Shown here in pieces: positions 3,540 through 29,864 of a DNA stretch of 64,000 bases. How positions within the stretch are numbered: the stretch's first letter is position 1; each line of letters begins with the position of its first letter. The notes under the pieces were generated by a model. The model was not told where the DNA came from and made no database searches. It saw only the letters and a list, made by a program, of their open reading frames with translations. The translations under genes and the position numbers were made by a program. Location of the stretch: positions 1 to 64,000 of the forward strand of contig JAEOTZ010000023.1 of assembly GCA_016839585.1 (NCBI GenBank), written 5' to 3'. This DNA is from Promethearchaeota archaeon. Lineage in GTDB: Archaea; Asgardarchaeota; Lokiarchaeia; Sigyniarchaeales; SOKP01.

Positions 3540-4610
3540 ATGTCAGATGATCATGAAAATCATGAAGAAGAAGAAGATAAATCCATAGTTGATGCGTTAT
3601 CTACATTAGGCTGGGTGGAAGAAAAAGAAGAAGAGGAGGGATCACCTCTAGGAACAGAAGACAATCTCATGGAACAACTTAATCTCTTCATGAATGAAAA
3701 TAAGAAACTAATTGAAGATTTAAATGAAAAAAATAAAACTATAAAAGAATTAAAGACAAACGTACAAGAACTCACCCAAAATATTGAAGATAATGCAACT
3801 CAAGGTCAAGCCATTCAAAAACTTTATGAAACAATTGAAGATAAAAATGATGAGATTGAACTATTAAATATAATTAAAACTGATCAAATAGAAAAAATTA
3901 AAGATTTAAGTAATCAAATTGAAAATATTAACTCTGAACAAACTCAAAATCAGGATTTATTAGAACAACTACAGGAAAAGGAAAATAAAGTTAAAGAATT
4001 AAAAGAACAACTTCACTATCTTGAATCTGATACCATACAAAAGTCTAAGTTTGAAAAAGCTGAAGTTCTTTTAGAAAAAAAAGATGAAATAATAACAGAA
4101 AAAGAAAAAGCTATCTTTGAAATTGAAAATTCGTTAAAATCTGCTAATCAAAAAATTCATGATCTACAACAACAACTTGAAACTTTTTCTTTATTAAAGA
4201 AAGATTTAGAGAAAAAGGATGAACGAATTAAACACTTAGTAGTAGAAATTGAAGAATTGAAACAAAAAAATATAACTAATTCAGAGCTTATAAGTCGTCT
4301 TGAAGGAAGATTAGAAGAAGCTCAACAAAAATCGGGGCATATAACTGGTAAATTTGAAGTAGAATTAGCTCATATGAGGAATATAATTGATGGAAAAGAC
4401 TCAGAAATTAAAGAATTAAAAGAAAAAGCATTTGGGATGGAAAATAAATTAAATGAAACAGAAAAAATAGAGGAAAAATTATTATCTGACATTCAGGAAA
4501 CAAAAGATGACAAATTAAAATTGGAATCTGAATTAGAAAAGAAAGATCACGAATTAGTAGAATTAAAGAAAAAGATTAAACTAATGCGAAGAGATTTAGC
4601 AAAATCTTAA
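3540..4610 (+). CDS. Long coiled-coil protein with acidic N-terminus
   Basis: E/K/L-rich heptads over about 310 aa; SD-like GGAAGGTGA upstream. Confidence 0.8.
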   Translation: MSDDHENHEEEEDKSIVDALSTLGWVEEKEEEEGSPLGTEDNLMEQLNLFMNENKKLIEDLNEKNKTIKELKTNVQELTQNIEDNATQGQAIQKLYETIEDKNDEIELLNIIKTDQIEKIKDLSNQIENINSEQTQNQDLLEQLQEKENKVKELKEQLHYLESDTIQKSKFEKAEVLLEKKDEIITEKEKAIFEIENSLKSANQKIHDLQQQLETFSLLKKDLEKKDERIKHLVVEIEELKQKNITNSELISRLEGRLEEAQQKSGHITGKFEVELAHMRNIIDGKDSEIKELKEKAFGMENKLNETEKIEEKLLSDIQETKDDKLKLESELEKKDHELVELKKKIKLMRRDLAKS

Positions 4611-18680: not shown

Positions 18681-19211
18681 GTGCACAGACATCATGATAA
18701 TTTAGAAGAAGAAGCAGAAAAATTAGAAAATCAATCTAAAGAAGAATTCAATAAAAAAAATTATACAATAGCAATTTCTCTCTTAAATGAAGCAAAAGAA
18801 GTTTACAAACAATTGGGATATGGAGGAAAAGTGGGAATCATTCAAAAACAGATTTCTCAAATGAAGAATCTAATGGTATTTGAAAAACAGAATAAATATC
18901 TTAAAACTAAAAACGAAGCACAATTCCAACAACGCGTTGATAAAGTATTAACTGAAAAGAAACGATATGAAAATAAAAAAATAGAGTCTTTAAAAGAAAT
19001 TCCACCCCAAATAAAAGGAAAACTTGAAAAAATAAATTTATTAAAAGAGAAAGTGGAAAAAGAATTAAAATTAGGCAGAATTGAAAGAGTTAAAGGAAGA
19101 TATGAATATATTATAGAGTTATATAAATCTATTCCTAAAAGTATATTAAACTCATCATTTGAGATCTTAGAAATTGAAAGAATACTATCATCTTTAGGAG
19201 ATAAAAAATAA
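18681..19211 (+). CDS. Helical TPR/MIT-like hypothetical protein
   Basis: NYTIAISLLNEAKEVYKQLG TPR-like helix pair. Confidence 0.6.
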   Translation: MHRHHDNLEEEAEKLENQSKEEFNKKNYTIAISLLNEAKEVYKQLGYGGKVGIIQKQISQMKNLMVFEKQNKYLKTKNEAQFQQRVDKVLTEKKRYENKKIESLKEIPPQIKGKLEKINLLKEKVEKELKLGRIERVKGRYEYIIELYKSIPKSILNSSFEILEIERILSSLGDKK

Positions 19212-23354: not shown

Positions 23355-26300
23355 ATGGGTAAGCAATCCCTTTTAGAAGTTAATTTTTTTTTTCACATAA
23401 TTATTTTAAAACATATTTATATTAGTTCAACAGAAGAGATCATTGGAGAAAAAATTTTTAAAAAAAGTTCTAAATCTAACACCTTGACAAGCCTAACATT
23501 AGATACAAAAAAAATTGAAAGCCTAATTTTAAAAGGTCTTTATGAAAAAGCAACTGAAGAAATATTTAATTTAATAGATAATTATCAAATTCATCATGAT
23601 AAAGAACTAATATATAAAAGCCTTAGTTTATTAAACCTAATTTGTGATAAATCACCTTCTATTTCTTTAAGAGCCGTTAAAAGTATTGCTATATTTATTA
23701 ATGAAATTGATTCTTGGATTAGATTAGTATCTTTAGAGATATTATATCAAGTTAGCAAGTTTAGACCTAATCTATTAATTGATTTAATTGATAGAATAAG
23801 AGCGCGTTTATATGATCAGGAACCTTCTGTAAGAAGATTAACTGTGAGGATTATTGGAAATTTAATTCTTTCCTTGCATATAGATATCGAGGAATTACAA
23901 GATATAATTGAAGAGTATACTGAAAAATTGATGGATAATGATTGGAAAGTAAAACTAAATGTAATTAAAACCATTCAAAAAATCCTAAATCAAGATTATA
24001 AAAAAATTAAAGATTTAGAACCATTATTATCGATGGTTATAGTAAATCTAAGGGATGAAGATGATGATGTAGCAAGAGCAGCTGCTGAACTGTTAAAGAT
24101 TCATGGGACCTATTTCCTTTCTAAGGAAAAATTATTTTATGTTCTTTTAAATCTACTATATAATGAACAAAGTAGAGTTAAAGAATTAATTATATGGTTA
24201 TTTGGAGAAATTGGAAAAGAAAAATCATCAGAAATTATTTCGATTATTCCCAAATTAATAAATCTATTAAAAGAAGAAGATTACCGTATTGAATTAAAAG
24301 TAATTGAAGCACTAGTCAACATAGCAGAAAATAATTTTGATCAAATCTGGGCAAATTTAATAGATTCATTGCTGGAATCAAGCAATTCTGATTATAGAAA
24401 CTCATTAATAAATGCAATATATAATTTAAGTCAAAATAATATTAATATTATTTTTCCTTATTTATTTGAGGAATTAGAGAATCCATCTGAAAATATAAGA
24501 GAAGGAATTGCTTTAGTGTTTAAACGATTATTTGAAGAGTATCAAATAGAAATAGAAAATGAAATAACGAAAATGCTATATAAACTAGAATCACGATATT
24601 GGAGAGAAAGAGAAAAGACGATACTATTACTTCAGAATATCTGTTTCATTTTAAAAAGTAAAAAAATTGCTGTTTGGGTTACTATTGAATTAGAAAGAGC
24701 TTTAAAATATGAAAAAGATCCTGAGGTAAAAGATGAAATAATTTACGCTTTAGAAAATATCAGGAAAAACTTTAGCGATATTGATACAACTATTCAAAAA
24801 ATCAATCATGAATTAACATTCTTTCATAAAAAAATTAAGAGTTTTCAAAGAATTCCAGCTCAATTTAGAGAAAAATTAAATTCTTATATAAATAATTTCA
24901 AATTCAATGATACTGAAATTCAGCTAAATAAGAAATACAAGAAAATTTTAAAAAAAATTAAGAAATTTCATAAAACAATTAATAAATTTGAATATAAAAG
25001 ATTAGCTTTTGATTTAATTGAAGAATGGGAAGAAACTAAAGTTCAAATTATAGAAGAATTAAGTATAATAAAAAGCTTTATATCTGAAATATGTGAGGAA
25101 AAGAAGTCTGAATTTATTATAGATCTAAAATCTAAAATTAAGTTGCTAGACGACCGTATCGTTGTTTTAAAAACACAATTTGATTATATTAAAAATTATG
25201 AATTTCGCTTAAATTTAGATGCTTCCATATCAAATATTAAACTAAGTAATGAAGAAAATGAAAGATTCACCTATATAACACAAATAAGAAAAAGTTTATT
25301 TAAACTGGACAGTGATATAAGAGAGATTTTAGTGAACAACGTAGAATTCAACGAAATATTTAAAGATTTATTAAGAAAATGGGTTGAAACAAAAATTGAA
25401 ATACAAGAACATTTAAGTGATTTAGATCGGCAAATTAGACTAATGAAAGATAAAATTATAAATTATTTTTTACATATTGAATCAGTTAGTGATATTGCTG
25501 AAGAAGAAAGAATTAATGGAATAAATAGTGAACTTGGGTTTCAGCTTCTTCAAGGACATATACATTCTATTATTTCTCAAGGAATTGAAGGTTTCAAGAA
25601 AATTAATGATAATTTTTCTAAATTGAACTCTAAATTAGAATTTTTAATTAAAAAAAGTGAATTTTCAGATGCTAAGAAGTTAATTGAGATGAATTCTTCT
25701 CAAGTTCAAAATTTCATAGAAGAGAGCGAAAAACAGATCGAAAATATAGTAGATAAGGAAAAAATCTTCGAAGACAATAATGTGTTTAATTTGTACGTTA
25801 GACCTTATATCAACAAATTTAATGCTTCAAAAGAATTACTTATAAACAGGTTAAAAAATTTTATTGAAAGAAGTAACAAAAAGCTCTACCTAAATCAGAT
25901 AAAACACTACTTGAAAATTATAAACCCAATAAAATTAGACTTGCTCTCTTCATATGTAGGATTGGAGATAGAGAAATTAAAAGAATTATTACTAAAATTT
26001 ATTAATAAAAATAAAATTAATGCAAATATTATAAATGATGAGCTTTATTCACAACAAATTGAGGCTGATACCGCTTCCTCGATTGAACTTCTCTTTTTTA
26101 AAAACATAAAAACTATTGGAAATAAAATTTATTTAAATTTTAAGTTATCAAATCCTTCAAATTTCGACTTCCAAGATTTGCAAATCTCGTTGAAGGTTCC
26201 TTCTTATATAGATTTCCAGAAAAAAGAAAGTTTTCCTAAATTTCTCCAACTGAATGAATTAAATTCAGGAAAAGTTTTCAAATTTAATTATGTGTTAAAG

Positions 26301-26435
26301 GTTGATAGACAAAAAGAACAAAAGAAGAACTTATTCGATCCCACTGCTGATGAGATTAAATTGGATTTATACTACAAAGACCAATTTAATATAACACGAA
26401 AAACGACAAAAAATATTGATCTTCTATTACATTAA
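23355..26435 (+). CDS. HEAT-repeat / coiled-coil / PCI-like / Ig-like scaffold protein (true start probably near TTG 23484)
   Basis: HEAT units (LYDQEPSVRR, LMDNDWKVK, LRDEDDDVAR), helical middle, PCI-like segment IKLDLLSSYVGLEIEKLKELLLKFI..KINANI, beta-rich C-terminus. Confidence 0.75.
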   Translation: MGKQSLLEVNFFFHIIILKHIYISSTEEIIGEKIFKKSSKSNTLTSLTLDTKKIESLILKGLYEKATEEIFNLIDNYQIHHDKELIYKSLSLLNLICDKSPSISLRAVKSIAIFINEIDSWIRLVSLEILYQVSKFRPNLLIDLIDRIRARLYDQEPSVRRLTVRIIGNLILSLHIDIEELQDIIEEYTEKLMDNDWKVKLNVIKTIQKILNQDYKKIKDLEPLLSMVIVNLRDEDDDVARAAAELLKIHGTYFLSKEKLFYVLLNLLYNEQSRVKELIIWLFGEIGKEKSSEIISIIPKLINLLKEEDYRIELKVIEALVNIAENNFDQIWANLIDSLLESSNSDYRNSLINAIYNLSQNNINIIFPYLFEELENPSENIREGIALVFKRLFEEYQIEIENEITKMLYKLESRYWREREKTILLLQNICFILKSKKIAVWVTIELERALKYEKDPEVKDEIIYALENIRKNFSDIDTTIQKINHELTFFHKKIKSFQRIPAQFREKLNSYINNFKFNDTEIQLNKKYKKILKKIKKFHKTINKFEYKRLAFDLIEEWEETKVQIIEELSIIKSFISEICEEKKSEFIIDLKSKIKLLDDRIVVLKTQFDYIKNYEFRLNLDASISNIKLSNEENERFTYITQIRKSLFKLDSDIREILVNNVEFNEIFKDLLRKWVETKIEIQEHLSDLDRQIRLMKDKIINYFLHIESVSDIAEEERINGINSELGFQLLQGHIHSIISQGIEGFKKINDNFSKLNSKLEFLIKKSEFSDAKKLIEMNSSQVQNFIEESEKQIENIVDKEKIFEDNNVFNLYVRPYINKFNASKELLINRLKNFIERSNKKLYLNQIKHYLKIINPIKLDLLSSYVGLEIEKLKELLLKFINKNKINANIINDELYSQQIEADTASSIELLFFKNIKTIGNKIYLNFKLSNPSNFDFQDLQISLKVPSYIDFQKKESFPKFLQLNELNSGKVFKFNYVLKVDRQKEQKKNLFDPTADEIKLDLYYKDQFNITRKTTKNIDLLLH

Positions 26436-26594
26436 TAATTTATATCAAATTTATATTAAACTAAAATTATTTTTTACTACTTCTATCGAAGAATTTAATA
26501 ATTTATTACGAAAATATTAATATATCGTTATTTCTATTTTTCACTAACTAGATTATAATTTAATAAATACATAATAACTAGCGTGAGGTGAGTA

Positions 26595-27623
26595 ATGCAA
26601 GAATTAGAGAGTTATCGATTAACTCAACAGGTTAAACTTTTTGGATGAAACTGTAAATTAAACGCAAAGAAACTAGATAAACTTCTTAAAGGAGCTGGTT
26701 TAAAAAGAGAAATAGAAGATTCTGCAATTATACCTGTCCCAAATACTGATTTAGTCATGGTAAAAAATATTGACATTTTCACACCAATACTTGATGAGCC
26801 AGATATAATGGGAGAAATCGCTGCTTGTAACGTCACTAATGATGTATTTGCAATGAATGTTCCTGAAATTTCGGGTATGTTAGTTTTTTTAGGAATAAAC
26901 AAAAAAACTCCCATAGAAATCGCAGAAGGCATATTAAAGGGGATAAAAAGGTTTTTGGTACAAAAGTTAAATTCTAAAGTCCTTGGGGGTCATACTATAT
27001 ATACTCAATGGCCATTAATTGGTGGCGAAGCAAGTGGTTTTGTGAAAAGAGCTTTTATTATTAAGAAAAACTATGTAAAAATTGGAGACAAAATAATACT
27101 TACAAAACCTATAGGAAATCAATCTGTAATGGCTGCTTACAGATTACAAAAAAATAGACCTGATCTCCTAGAACATTATTCTACTAGTGAAGTTGATACC
27201 GCAATCGAATTCGCAGTAGAACTAATGATAGAACCTTTACAAGATGTTGTTAAAACGATACATACTTATTCTAACTTCTCATTTGTTCACTCTATGACTG
27301 ATATAAGCGGATTTGGTTTAGCTGGACACCTAAAAGAGATGCTACAAAACTCTCAATTATCAGCAATAATAAAGAAAATTCCTTACATACGGTTAGCAAA
27401 AGAGTTAGCATATGATTTTGGTTATAAATTCGATGAGTGCTTAATGCCTGAGACTGCTGGAGGAATGCTCCTCTCTGTTGACAACAATTATGCAGAAGAA
27501 TTTTCTAATAGACTTATGAGTAAAGGAGTCCAAAATTGGATTATTGGAGAGATCGATAATATAAAACCAAAACTCGTTAGAGTTTCTAAAAATGTAGAAC
27601 ATATTGAAATAAAAATGATTTAA
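26595..27623 (+). CDS. selD: Selenophosphate synthetase, Sec-containing, copy 1 (TGA 26646-26648 = Sec18)
   Basis: GAGGTGA SD, ATG 26595, MQELESYRLTQQVKLFG-U-NCK in frame with ORF 26757. DIFTPI, NDVFAM, GGHT, LTKPIG, TDISGFGL.GHL, ETAGG. Confidence 0.95.
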
Positions 27624-27695
27624 TGATGTCAATGATATAAGCTGAAACACATTATTGTGATTGTTTATTGAGAATTCCGTTGCGAAACGGCATCG
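27624..27695 (+). promoter_or_regulatory. SECIS element (eukaryote-like, 3' UTR) of selD copy 1
   Basis: GATG/CATC helix I, ATGA...TGAG core, ATAAGC/GTTTAT helix II, AAA bulge, CACA/TGTG ministem, extra CCGTT-GCGA-AACGG hairpin. Confidence 0.9.
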
Positions 27696-27931
27696 ATAAA
27701 AACTGAATGGTTTTAAATTTTTTCTTTTTTTGTTTTAGTTATTTGGAATAAATATAATTATGTTAGATTTCTATAGATTATATTAGTAACATAATTCACT
27801 TATAAGAAAGGATTTAATTTTATTTATCGAAAAAGGCGATATATAAAATCTAAAATCTTAATAAATAATATAAATTCACATTATTATTAATTCTAATAGG
27901 ATTAGAACAATTAGTAGATGTGAGGTGAAAA

Positions 27932-28960
27932 ATGAAAAAAGAGCCAGAATATAGATTGACAAAGGCAGTTAAAATCTTTGGATGATCTTGTAAATTGGGT
28001 TCTAATGATTTAGAGGATCTACTAAAGAAAACGGGTTTAAGTGGAGATATTGAAGATGCTGCGGTAATACCAGTTCCCAATTCTGATATGGCAATGGTCA
28101 AAAATATCGATATTATTACTCCTATTGTTGATGAGCCAGATATTATGGGAGAAATCGCTGCTTGTAACGTCACTAATGATGTATTTGCAATGAATGTTCC
28201 TGAAATTTCGGGTATGTTAGTTTTTTTAGGAATAAACACAAATACACCTATGGAAATTGCTGAGGGAATACTAAAGGGAATAAGTAATTTTATGGAAAAT
28301 AAAATTAATTCCAAAGTTGTTGGAGGTCACACGATTTACAGTGAATGGCCCTTAATAGGAGGTACTGCTACCGGATTTGTTAAAAGAAATTCTATTATTC
28401 GTAAACAGGGAGTAAAAGAAGGAGATAATCTGATATTGACAAAACCAATAGGATTACAACCTGTAATGGCTGCCTATAGGCTTCTAAAAGATATGCCTGA
28501 AATGTTAGAAGGTTATTCTGAGAAACAACTTAGGAAATCAATTAAACTTGCTATTAAGATTATGACAGAATCAAATCAGAATGTTGTAAAAACTATTCAC
28601 TCATTTAAAGATTTTTCATTTATCCATGCGATGACTGATGTGACTGGATTTGGTCTTGCTGGTCATTTATTAGAAATGCTTCAAAATTCTAATTTATCTG
28701 CTGTTATTGAAACAATTCCATCAATAAGACTTTCAGAAAGTTTATCTATTGATTTAGGTTATGCTTTCGATGAATGTACATGCGCCGAGACTGCGGGTGG
28801 TATATTAATGGCTGTTGATCCCCTCAATACAGAAGAATTTTCTAATACTCTTTCTAGCAATGGTATTTCGAATTGGACTGTCGGAAAAATAGATACAATT
28901 ACTCCTGGGCTAGTTAGGATTTCAAAAAATGTTGAAAATATTGAAATTTCAAAATATTAA
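27932..28960 (+). CDS. selD: Selenophosphate synthetase, Sec-containing, copy 2 (TGA 27983-27985 = Sec18)
   Basis: GAGGTGA SD, ATG 27932, MKKEPEYRLTKAVKIFG-U-SCK in frame with ORF 27995; same SelD motifs as copy 1. Confidence 0.95.
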
Positions 28961-29033
28961 TGATGTTGATGAAATAAGCTAAAACACCATTTAGTGGTTG
29001 CTTATTGAGAGTTCCACGCGCGATGTGGCATCA
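28961..29033 (+). promoter_or_regulatory. SECIS element (eukaryote-like, 3' UTR) of selD copy 2
   Basis: TGATG/CATCA, ATGA...TGAG, ATAAGC/GCTTAT, AAAA, ACCA/TGGT, extra CCAC...GCGA...GTGG hairpin. Confidence 0.9.
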
Positions 29034-29045
29034 AATTTAGAATAA

Positions 29046-29864
29046 TTATCTTTCTTTTATTTTTCCTTTAAGTTTTATAACTATTTCTCTTATTTCATTT
29101 AAGACTTTATCAACCAATTCTTCTCCGTTTTTTATATTAAAAGCAGTTATAGAAACCTCAACTTCTACTGATAAACCAATTCTTGGATGTGTTTTAATCC
29201 AAAGTTGAGGAAATTTATCTTCTAATTCACTTGTATAAGCTGCAATATGACTTTCTCCAATTCCAGAAAAACGAAAACCTTTTTCTATAAATTTACCTTT
29301 CTTCTGTTTCAAAATGGGGATTATTACATTCCTAAATATTGCTTTCATTTCCGCAGGTACGCCAGGCAATATAAAAATAGTTGTATTTCCTTCAATAATC
29401 TTAACACCAGGAGCTGTACCTACAGTGTTAGGTAAAGGAGTGGATCCTTGAGGGAGAAAAGCCATTTTTTCCCTCTCTTTCGTCATCCCTTCAAGTTTTA
29501 ACAGTCCTTTTTCATAAGCACGCTCATAAGTTTTCTTGATAGCTTTATATGCATGTTGATTTAACTCTAATTCTCTATTTAAACCTTTTGCGATTCCAGT
29601 TAAAGTCATATCGTCAAAAGTAGGTCCTATACCTCCTGAAGTTATAATTATATCTGGTTTACGTTTTAGAATATCTTGCAATGTACTTGATATTATATCT
29701 ACTTCATCCCCTATTGTTGTTATTCTTTTAATTTTATGACCAAACTTAGTAATTCTTTTCGCCATCCAATTAGAGTTCGTATCTTGAGTTTTTCCAATAA
29801 GGATTTCATTTCCAATCATTAGAAGTTCAATATCCATAAGTTCATCATCACACAAAAATAACAA
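29046..29864 (-). CDS. CinA-like molybdopterin-binding-fold protein (probable start at the MDIELL Met)
   Basis: IGNEILIG..QDTN, SGGIGPTFDDMT, GTAPG, LPGVP.EM. Confidence 0.9.
   Translation of the reverse strand: MLFLCDDELMDIELLMIGNEILIGKTQDTNSNWMAKRITKFGHKIKRITTIGDEVDIISSTLQDILKRKPDIIITSGGIGPTFDDMTLTGIAKGLNRELELNQHAYKAIKKTYERAYEKGLLKLEGMTKEREKMAFLPQGSTPLPNTVGTAPGVKIIEGNTTIFILPGVPAEMKAIFRNVIIPILKQKKGKFIEKGFRFSGIGESHIAAYTSELEDKFPQLWIKTHPRIGLSVEVEVSITAFNIKNGEELVDKVLNEIREIVIKLKGKIKER

Follow-up and report, generated by a model that had tools for sequence, protein, structure and literature searches.

We analysed a stretch of 64,000 nucleotides from the Promethearchaeota archaeon assembly GCA_016839585.1 (Lokiarchaeia; contig JAEOTZ010000023.1, positions 1 to 64,000, our contig C5), which is called the window in the following; the genome comprises 3.45 Mb and is 99.2% complete. 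The window contains two adjacent genes, selD-A and selD-B, for selenide, water dikinase (SelD), an enzyme also named selenophosphate synthetase (SPS). Very probably, both are functional paralogs of the selenocysteine (Sec) type (SPS2), whose UGA codon 18 is decoded as Sec by means of a Sec insertion sequence (SECIS) element in the 3' untranslated region (3' UTR), and the pair goes back to one tandem duplication. The genes and their Sec codons are:

26595..27623, + strand: selD-A, Sec-containing selenide, water dikinase, derived paralog with the loop FG-U-NCK (ATG 26595, TAA 27623)
26646..26648, + strand: UGA codon 18 of selD-A, read as Sec, aligned with E. coli Cys17
27932..28960, + strand: selD-B, Sec-containing selenide, water dikinase, ancestral-type paralog with the loop FG-U-SCK (ATG 27932, TAA 28960)
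27983..27985, + strand: UGA codon 18 of selD-B, read as Sec, aligned with E. coli Cys17

Each gene encodes 342 residues and has a single in-frame TGA (read as U). The genes are separated by 308 nt on the same contig, and the proteins can be aligned without gaps at 65% sequence identity. A mechanical list of open reading frames (ORFs) lets them start at 26757 and 27995, which is too late in both cases; this error had already been noticed in the original prediction, a reading of the window made without database searches. The same prediction had described two full-length Sec-type paralogs, each with a Shine-Dalgarno (SD) sequence, a TGA at codon 18, and a SECIS element beginning at the stop codon, and this description is borne out by the reading frames, the family model TIGR00476, and covariation. 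The PurM-like N- and C-terminal domains PF00586 (AIRS) and PF02769 (AIRS_C) were found above their cut-offs in both proteins. The NCBIfam equivalog model of SelD, TIGR00476 (cut-off 125), gave 177.9 bits for selD-A and 205.4 bits for selD-B; with 269.5 and 286.9 bits, the scores of the archaeal-type model NF010705 are slightly below the cut-off of 291. Among solved structures, human SEPHS1 (3fd5) was the top match, with E-values of 2e-34 (A) and 2e-37 (B) over 268 to 282 aligned residues, followed by Leishmania SPS and then by bacterial SelD, whose matches are weaker (E about 1e-24; 3e-24 for E. coli). The proposal that the motifs are closer to eukaryotic SPS thus holds at the level of structure matches, because the best of these are eukaryotic SPS1.

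The alignment to E. coli SelD (3u0o) placed U18, C20, and K21 on Cys17, Cys19, and Lys20; the TGA, as had to be checked, falls on the catalytic cysteine. Residues D42, D60, N79, D83, and D236, which are kept in both copies, are aligned with the ATP/metal residues of the E. coli enzyme, which we take to be D51, D68, N87, D91, and D227. The catalytic loop with Sec, Cys, and Lys is retained in selD-A as well as in selD-B; a replacement of Sec/Cys in the derived copy, as is typical of SPS1, was not found in selD-A. The loops FG-U-NCK and FG-U-SCK had been considered unusual. Both motifs are indeed present, but they deviate from U-G-C-K in one residue only (N or S in place of G), and the related single-copy selD genes of Lokiarchaeia all normally carry U-S-C-K. 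The TGA at codon 18 is kept in all complete B and single-copy homologs examined and in 37 of 39 complete A copies; the two exceptions are due to a 31-nt insert described below and not to a residue substitution.

In order to characterise the SECIS elements, 91 distinct homologous 3' UTRs were aligned. Based on this alignment, on pair counts, and on RNAalifold, the following parts were assigned:

27624..27695, + strand: SECIS of selD-A (SECIS-A)
27625-27628 with 27691-27694, + strand: helix I of SECIS-A, GAUG paired with CAUC
27632-27635 with 27670-27671, + strand: core of SECIS-A, AUGA with GA
within SECIS-A, + strand: helix II of 6-7 bp and AAA bulge with apical ministem
27677-27690, + strand: 3' side hairpin of SECIS-A
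28961..29033, + strand: SECIS of selD-B (SECIS-B), four-helix layout as in SECIS-A
28969-28972 with 29007-29008, + strand: core of SECIS-B, AUGA with GA
29014-29028, + strand: side hairpin of SECIS-B

Both elements begin at the stop codon, and over the ~75 nt that follow it the 3' UTRs of the two genes show 79% identity. Helix I, the AUGA...GA core, helix II, and the A-rich bulge with its ministem are joined by a side hairpin, which follows the 3' GA of the core and precedes the 3' strand of helix I. All 91 sequences share the G-A of the core and the 3' G-A, and the AAA bulge is almost invariant. In total, 91.7% of the alignment cells are paired and 15 of 21 pairs are altered on both sides; none of 500 shuffles reached the observed value for four measures, and one of 500 did so for a fifth. 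Slid controls of the alignment gave a pairing of 29-51%. The ministem is 99.3% paired and two of its three pairs covary, compensatory changes occur in all six pairs of the side hairpin, and RNAalifold predicted the same helices independently. In agreement with the expectation of a eukaryote-like SECIS in the 3' UTR, this is a type II layout whose structure is conserved among the homologs. In Rfam, no family reached its gathering score in the whole window, and the SECIS families gave no match in the region 27560-29100 even at E-values up to 10. The selD SECIS is eukaryote-like in its layout, but is not a member of the Rfam SECIS families. Both elements are predicted to direct the insertion of Sec at UGA-18.

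Two variations of the element were seen in relatives. In the 3' UTRs of L024 (B), L073, L081 (B), and L076, the SECIS sequence is quite different and the layout apparently the same: these elements have a longer helix I, AUGA with UGA, a helix II of 8 bp, and a side hairpin whose loop is of the GCAA type. Moreover, a few B copies (L029, L038, L067, L069) possess an A-type side hairpin, which suggests an exchange between A and B 3' UTRs.

For the decoding of UGA, the corresponding machinery must be present, and a search of the genome detected its components. SepSecS (489 bits) and EFSec (244 bits) were found above their cut-offs, together with a PSTK-like match and a candidate tRNA-Sec whose anticodon is UCA (G000:C86:59756-59872, minus strand; locus L008:1501-1617). 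SepSecS follows the candidate immediately downstream, and EFSec lies at a distance of about 3 kb. The T arm of the candidate carries an insert of 31 nt; for Lokiarchaeal tRNA-Sec, an intron in this arm has been published earlier (PMC5330540). The 9-bp acceptor pairing of GGCCCCUAG with CUGGGGGCC requires the removal of a second insert of ~29 nt, which sits 3' of the 5' acceptor strand. ARAGORN did not recognise this intron-bearing candidate, and the same program reported no tRNA gene for the window.

The distribution of the genes was surveyed in 36 genomes of the same genus and in 24 sampled genomes that belong to other families in the order or class. Within the genus, 28 of the 36 genomes gave two selD matches, six gave one, and two gave none; in the other families, a single Sec-type selD was found in 20 of 24 genomes and no match in the remaining four. 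If there are two matches, A precedes B on one strand, usually at a distance of 210-500 nt. Exceptions are G008, where A and B are on separate contigs, and G033, where A is a degraded C-terminal piece. That the copies are truly adjacent is confirmed by about 30 independent metagenome-assembled genomes (MAGs) with A and B on one contig, among them the two single-contig genomes G006 and G022. In one-copy genomes of the genus the copy is of the B type, and no genome of this survey was found to contain A without B. In L049 (DZ1M.223), whose B is 90% identical to that of the window, a HEAT-repeat gene is directly followed by B (L049:2858-3001), which is evidently a clean loss of selD-A; A is also lost or degraded in L043. 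In a further arrangement, a gene encoding a 2-hydroxyglutaryl-CoA dehydratase D-component of 429 residues (PF06050, 383 bits) lies between the two copies (L110:1577-2866); a PF06050 gene occupies the same place in L065, L068, L081, L109, and L080, and the gap is widened to about 1.7 kb.

A tree of 115 sequences, computed with a quick method, united all upstream (A) copies in one clade with a support of 100 in the Shimodaira-Hasegawa-like approximate likelihood ratio test (SH-aLRT) and a stem length of 0.42. This clade is nested within a grade of downstream (B) and single copies, and the single-copy lineages L075, L072, and L076 branch before it. Nineteen alignment columns are fixed differently between A and B, six of which are at most three residues away from a catalytic residue. 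For the exchanges S19N, C78A, N215L, A233S, and T238S, B, the basal single copies, and the outgroup hold the same residue; hence, A is the derived copy. The outgroup agrees with B in six columns altogether (S19, C78, N215, A233, T238, and a hydrophobic L/I at 175) and with A in one (F275). The ratio of nonsynonymous to synonymous substitution rates (dN/dS), determined pairwise, is about 0.084 for A and about 0.103 for B; both copies are under purifying selection. By these relationships, the pair stems from one tandem duplication within one genus-level lineage. The claim of an independent archaeal duplication after which both copies keep Sec is supported.

Some of our results weigh against the interpretation given so far. 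When folded individually, the 3' UTRs of selD-A and selD-B performed no better than shuffled sequences (z-values of -0.94 and -1.06), and consequently the support for both SECIS elements is comparative only. The PSTK-like kinase (145.6 bits, E-value 2e-42) stays below its curated cut-off, and the tRNA-Sec candidate scored only 34.6 bits as compared to the Rfam cut-off of 47, which might be due to its inserts, as these would lower the score. Finally, several nodes of the tree, which place the single-copy lineages relative to the duplication, were not settled by the quick method.

The copy selD-A of the window additionally contains a segment of B origin:

26791..26901, + strand: B-to-A gene-conversion tract in selD-A, 111 nt with 1 mismatch to 28128-28238

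An exact match extends over 94 nt (26808-26901), compared with a nucleotide identity of A and B of 66% outside the tract. Inside it, A of the window is 100% identical to B of its nearest relative L048 and 76% identical to A of L048, and the tract is absent from the nearest relatives. This indicates that the transfer was recent and that its direction was from B to A. The tract spans residues ~66-102, a part of the N-domain, and has introduced the B-type residues Ala78 → Cys and Leu87 → Met into selD-A. A general gene conversion between A and B was also considered and rejected: the mean A/B identity within genomes equals that between genomes, and the 111-nt tract occurs in this genome only.

The following scenario would account for the two genes. 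UGA-18 would be decoded as the catalytic Sec through the SECIS of the 3' UTR, which begins at the stop codon and combines a core of the kink-turn type (AUGA/GA), a short helix II, the A-rich bulge with its ministem, and the 3' side hairpin. After the duplication, B would have retained the ancestral sequence (U-S-C-K). A would have experienced a burst of change, during which substitutions were fixed beside Sec18, Asp42, Asn79, and Asp236, and would subsequently have come under purifying selection. Presumably, both enzymes make selenophosphate for SepSecS, with B being the indispensable housekeeping SelD and A a specialised isoform of accessory function. The handling of the selenium donor, substrate handling, or regulation might be different in A, and A/B heterodimers might be formed, because SelD is a dimer. 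Whether A serves as a heterodimer partner that tunes B, or supplies activated selenium (or sulfur) to an undescribed pathway, is a tentative suggestion that we regard with considerable doubt; if true, the new specificity would be reflected in the burst of substitutions fixed near Sec18, Asp42, Asn79, and Asp236.

An alternative that we consider unlikely is an obligate A/B heterodimer, in which A is a partner subunit and not an independent enzyme. SelD/PurM-type enzymes dimerise via their N-terminal domains, and the tract of B origin in just this domain of A has been tolerated without harm to the gene. Adjacency and co-retention of the copies in about 28 genomes, and the fact that A was not found without B, would also fit an obligate complex. 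However, A keeps all catalytic residues plus a Sec of its own, B occurs without A in at least five lineages, and the conversion tract is specific to one genome, which speaks against a general homogenisation of the interface.

Two functional Sec-type enzymes could also share the work such that one copy serves Sec synthesis and the other one the supply of selenouridine or of the selenium-molybdenum cofactor. This division of labour, which the original prediction had suggested alongside a heterodimer, has a precedent insofar as the three pathways all draw on SelD in other prokaryotes (marker genes summarised in PMC4989117). It is nevertheless very improbable: the markers selU (TIGR03167), yqeB (TIGR03309), and yqeC (TIGR03172) gave no match in the 99.2% complete genome, while the controls were matched, and neither trait was found in Lokiarchaeota (PMC4989117). 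Given these missing matches, the proposal is unsupported.

There is hardly any room for the assumption that one copy is decaying or that the TGAs are true stop codons followed by downstream protein starts. The late starts in the ORF list and the loss or degradation of A in L049 and L043 would be compatible with it. On the other hand, more than 100 homologs have conserved the 17 codons preceding the TGA, the SD sequence, and the U-x-C-K loop, the loop with the essential Lys21 would be missing from truncated products, the dN/dS values of both copies are as low as about 0.08-0.10, and compensatory changes maintain both SECIS elements. An assembly artefact, that is 'apparent paralogues' from mixed strains in a MAG, of which PMC4989117 warns for metagenomes, is practically excluded by the 65% identity of two copies 308 nt apart on one contig and by the same gene order in about 28 independent assemblies, including the single-contig genomes G006 and G022.

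The insert mentioned above is a separate observation on selD-A. In two non-sister genomes, G020 (L062) and G071 (L060), 31 nt are inserted directly after the Sec codon (L062:1768-1798, G020:C136, inside 4271-4319; L060:1481-1511, G071:C16, inside 19000-19048). The inserts agree in length and position and differ in sequence; insert-bearing selD-A genes occur in two of 54 genomes of the genus. Both inserts fit the bulge-helix-bulge motif as defined in PMC5829648: a helix of 4 bp, formed by G(U/C)UG with CA(A/G)(C/U) and containing one compensatory change between G020 and G071, is flanked by 3-nt bulges and followed by an intron-internal helix. Cuts predicted after the second base of each bulge restore GGN UGA AAC UGU AAR exactly. 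The 325 downstream codons are intact, and their dN/dS of 0.06-0.10 is equal to that of controls. In a genus-wide pattern scan, six matches were found in five genomes; those in selD-A were confined to G020 and G071. The insert looks like an intron in mRNA that is removed by the splicing endonuclease; if so, a selenoprotein gene of Asgard archaea would provide a candidate for an archaeal mRNA intron. Alternatively, it is possible that it reflects a recent inactivation of selD-A.

Signals for expression and the neighbouring genes complete the description of the locus:

26509..26525, + strand: B recognition element (BRE)/TATA-like promoter element of selD-A, CGAAAATATTAATATAT, ~70 nt 5' of the ATG
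26585..26591, + strand: SD sequence GAGGTGA of selD-A, 3 nt before the ATG; the identical heptamer precedes the A genes of relatives
27711..27737, + strand: T-rich stretch 3' of SECIS-A, read from the sequence
27824..27866, + strand: promoter-like BRE/TATA region of selD-B, alignable with the selD-A element
27922..27928, + strand: SD sequence GAGGTGA of selD-B, 3 nt before the ATG

An element of the form CGAAAA/CTAAAA-nn-TTAATAnAT is present at 26509-26525 and at 27850-27866, ~70 nt before each ATG, and is kept in relatives. It resembles an archaeal BRE/TATA, apparently duplicated together with the gene, and would serve as a promoter of both copies. The T-rich stretch at 27711-27737 is likely an archaeal terminator. 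Each gene would accordingly form an expression unit of its own, consisting of BRE/TATA-like element, GAGGTGA, and coding sequence, with a T-rich tail after A. Upstream of the pair (23355-26435, + strand), a HEAT-repeat protein of 1026 residues with weak matches to condensin Cnd1 is encoded; a HEAT-repeat gene also lies 5' of the selD locus in L049, the one relative checked. Downstream of selD-B (29046-29864), a gene on the opposite strand encodes a protein with a MoCF_biosynth (CinA-like) domain, and its stop codon abuts SECIS-B.

A Sec-containing SelD ties the activation of selenium to its own synthesis, and the selD of Asgard archaea is regarded as the origin of SPS2 in eukaryotes, including its type II SECIS. 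In animals, one SPS copy has repeatedly given up Sec. A conserved Sec/Sec pair of paralogs is a natural experiment in which duplication and divergence of a selenoenzyme can be followed before one copy drops Sec.

The occurrence of two Sec-type selD genes per genome is already known, and both proteins were catalogued in 2024. Huang, Xiao and Zhang (PMC11227280) count 51 Loki/Thor organisms in which selD is present at least twice, and assign the selD SECIS to type II eSECIS-like elements. In their supplementary SelD set, the entries Lokiarchaeia_GCA_016839585_U and _U_2 are identical letter for letter to selD-A and selD-B, with correct starts and an X at the Sec position; the file comprises 54 A-type and 88 B-type loops. 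As the proteins are contained in this supplement and multiple copies have been published, the pair as such is not new, and its novelty had been overstated. The main text of PMC11227280 does not mention the tandem arrangement, and the sections of the article considered here describe no A/B clade split, dating of the duplication, gene conversion, or 3' side hairpin. What is refined here is therefore the picture of the pair as a tandem of single origin with asymmetric divergence and a dispensable copy A, together with the conversion tract and the more detailed SECIS model with its side hairpin.

A comparison with known systems places the pair as follows. With E. coli SelD (3u0o), the A. aeolicus enzyme (2yye), and human SEPHS1 (3fd5), selD-A and selD-B share, by alignment, the two-domain AIRS fold family, the catalytic loop, and the acidic residues. 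In contrast to bacterial SelD, where the SECIS is in-frame, the element of both genes resides in the 3' UTR. A Sec-type SPS with a distinct SECIS has been reported for Lokiarchaeota by Mariotti et al. 2016 (PMC4989117), where SPS is single-copy in Loki, unlike the tandem pair of the window. Their SPS-type lokiSECIS is located in the 3' UTR and has an AUGA/GA core, a main stem shorter than that of other Loki SECIS, and an extra apical stem as in eukaryotic type II SECIS; the elements of selD-A and selD-B match it in their 3'-UTR site, in the AUGA/GA core, in the shortness of the stem, and in the ministem. The type II eSECIS-like model in the considered sections of PMC11227280 has a helix II of 6-14/7-15 bp, so that the 6-7 bp found here are at the lower edge; the side hairpin is absent from the SECIS model of PMC4989117 and from that presented in the same sections of PMC11227280. 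The closest analogy is the metazoan pair SPS1/SPS2 (Mariotti et al. 2015, PMC4561486), which likewise originated from independent duplication and consists of one conservative and one derived copy. In metazoan SPS1, however, Sec has been replaced and selenophosphate synthesis is thought to be lost, whereas both Lokiarchaeial genes are arranged in tandem, possess a SECIS each, and keep Sec, Lys, and the metal/ATP residues.

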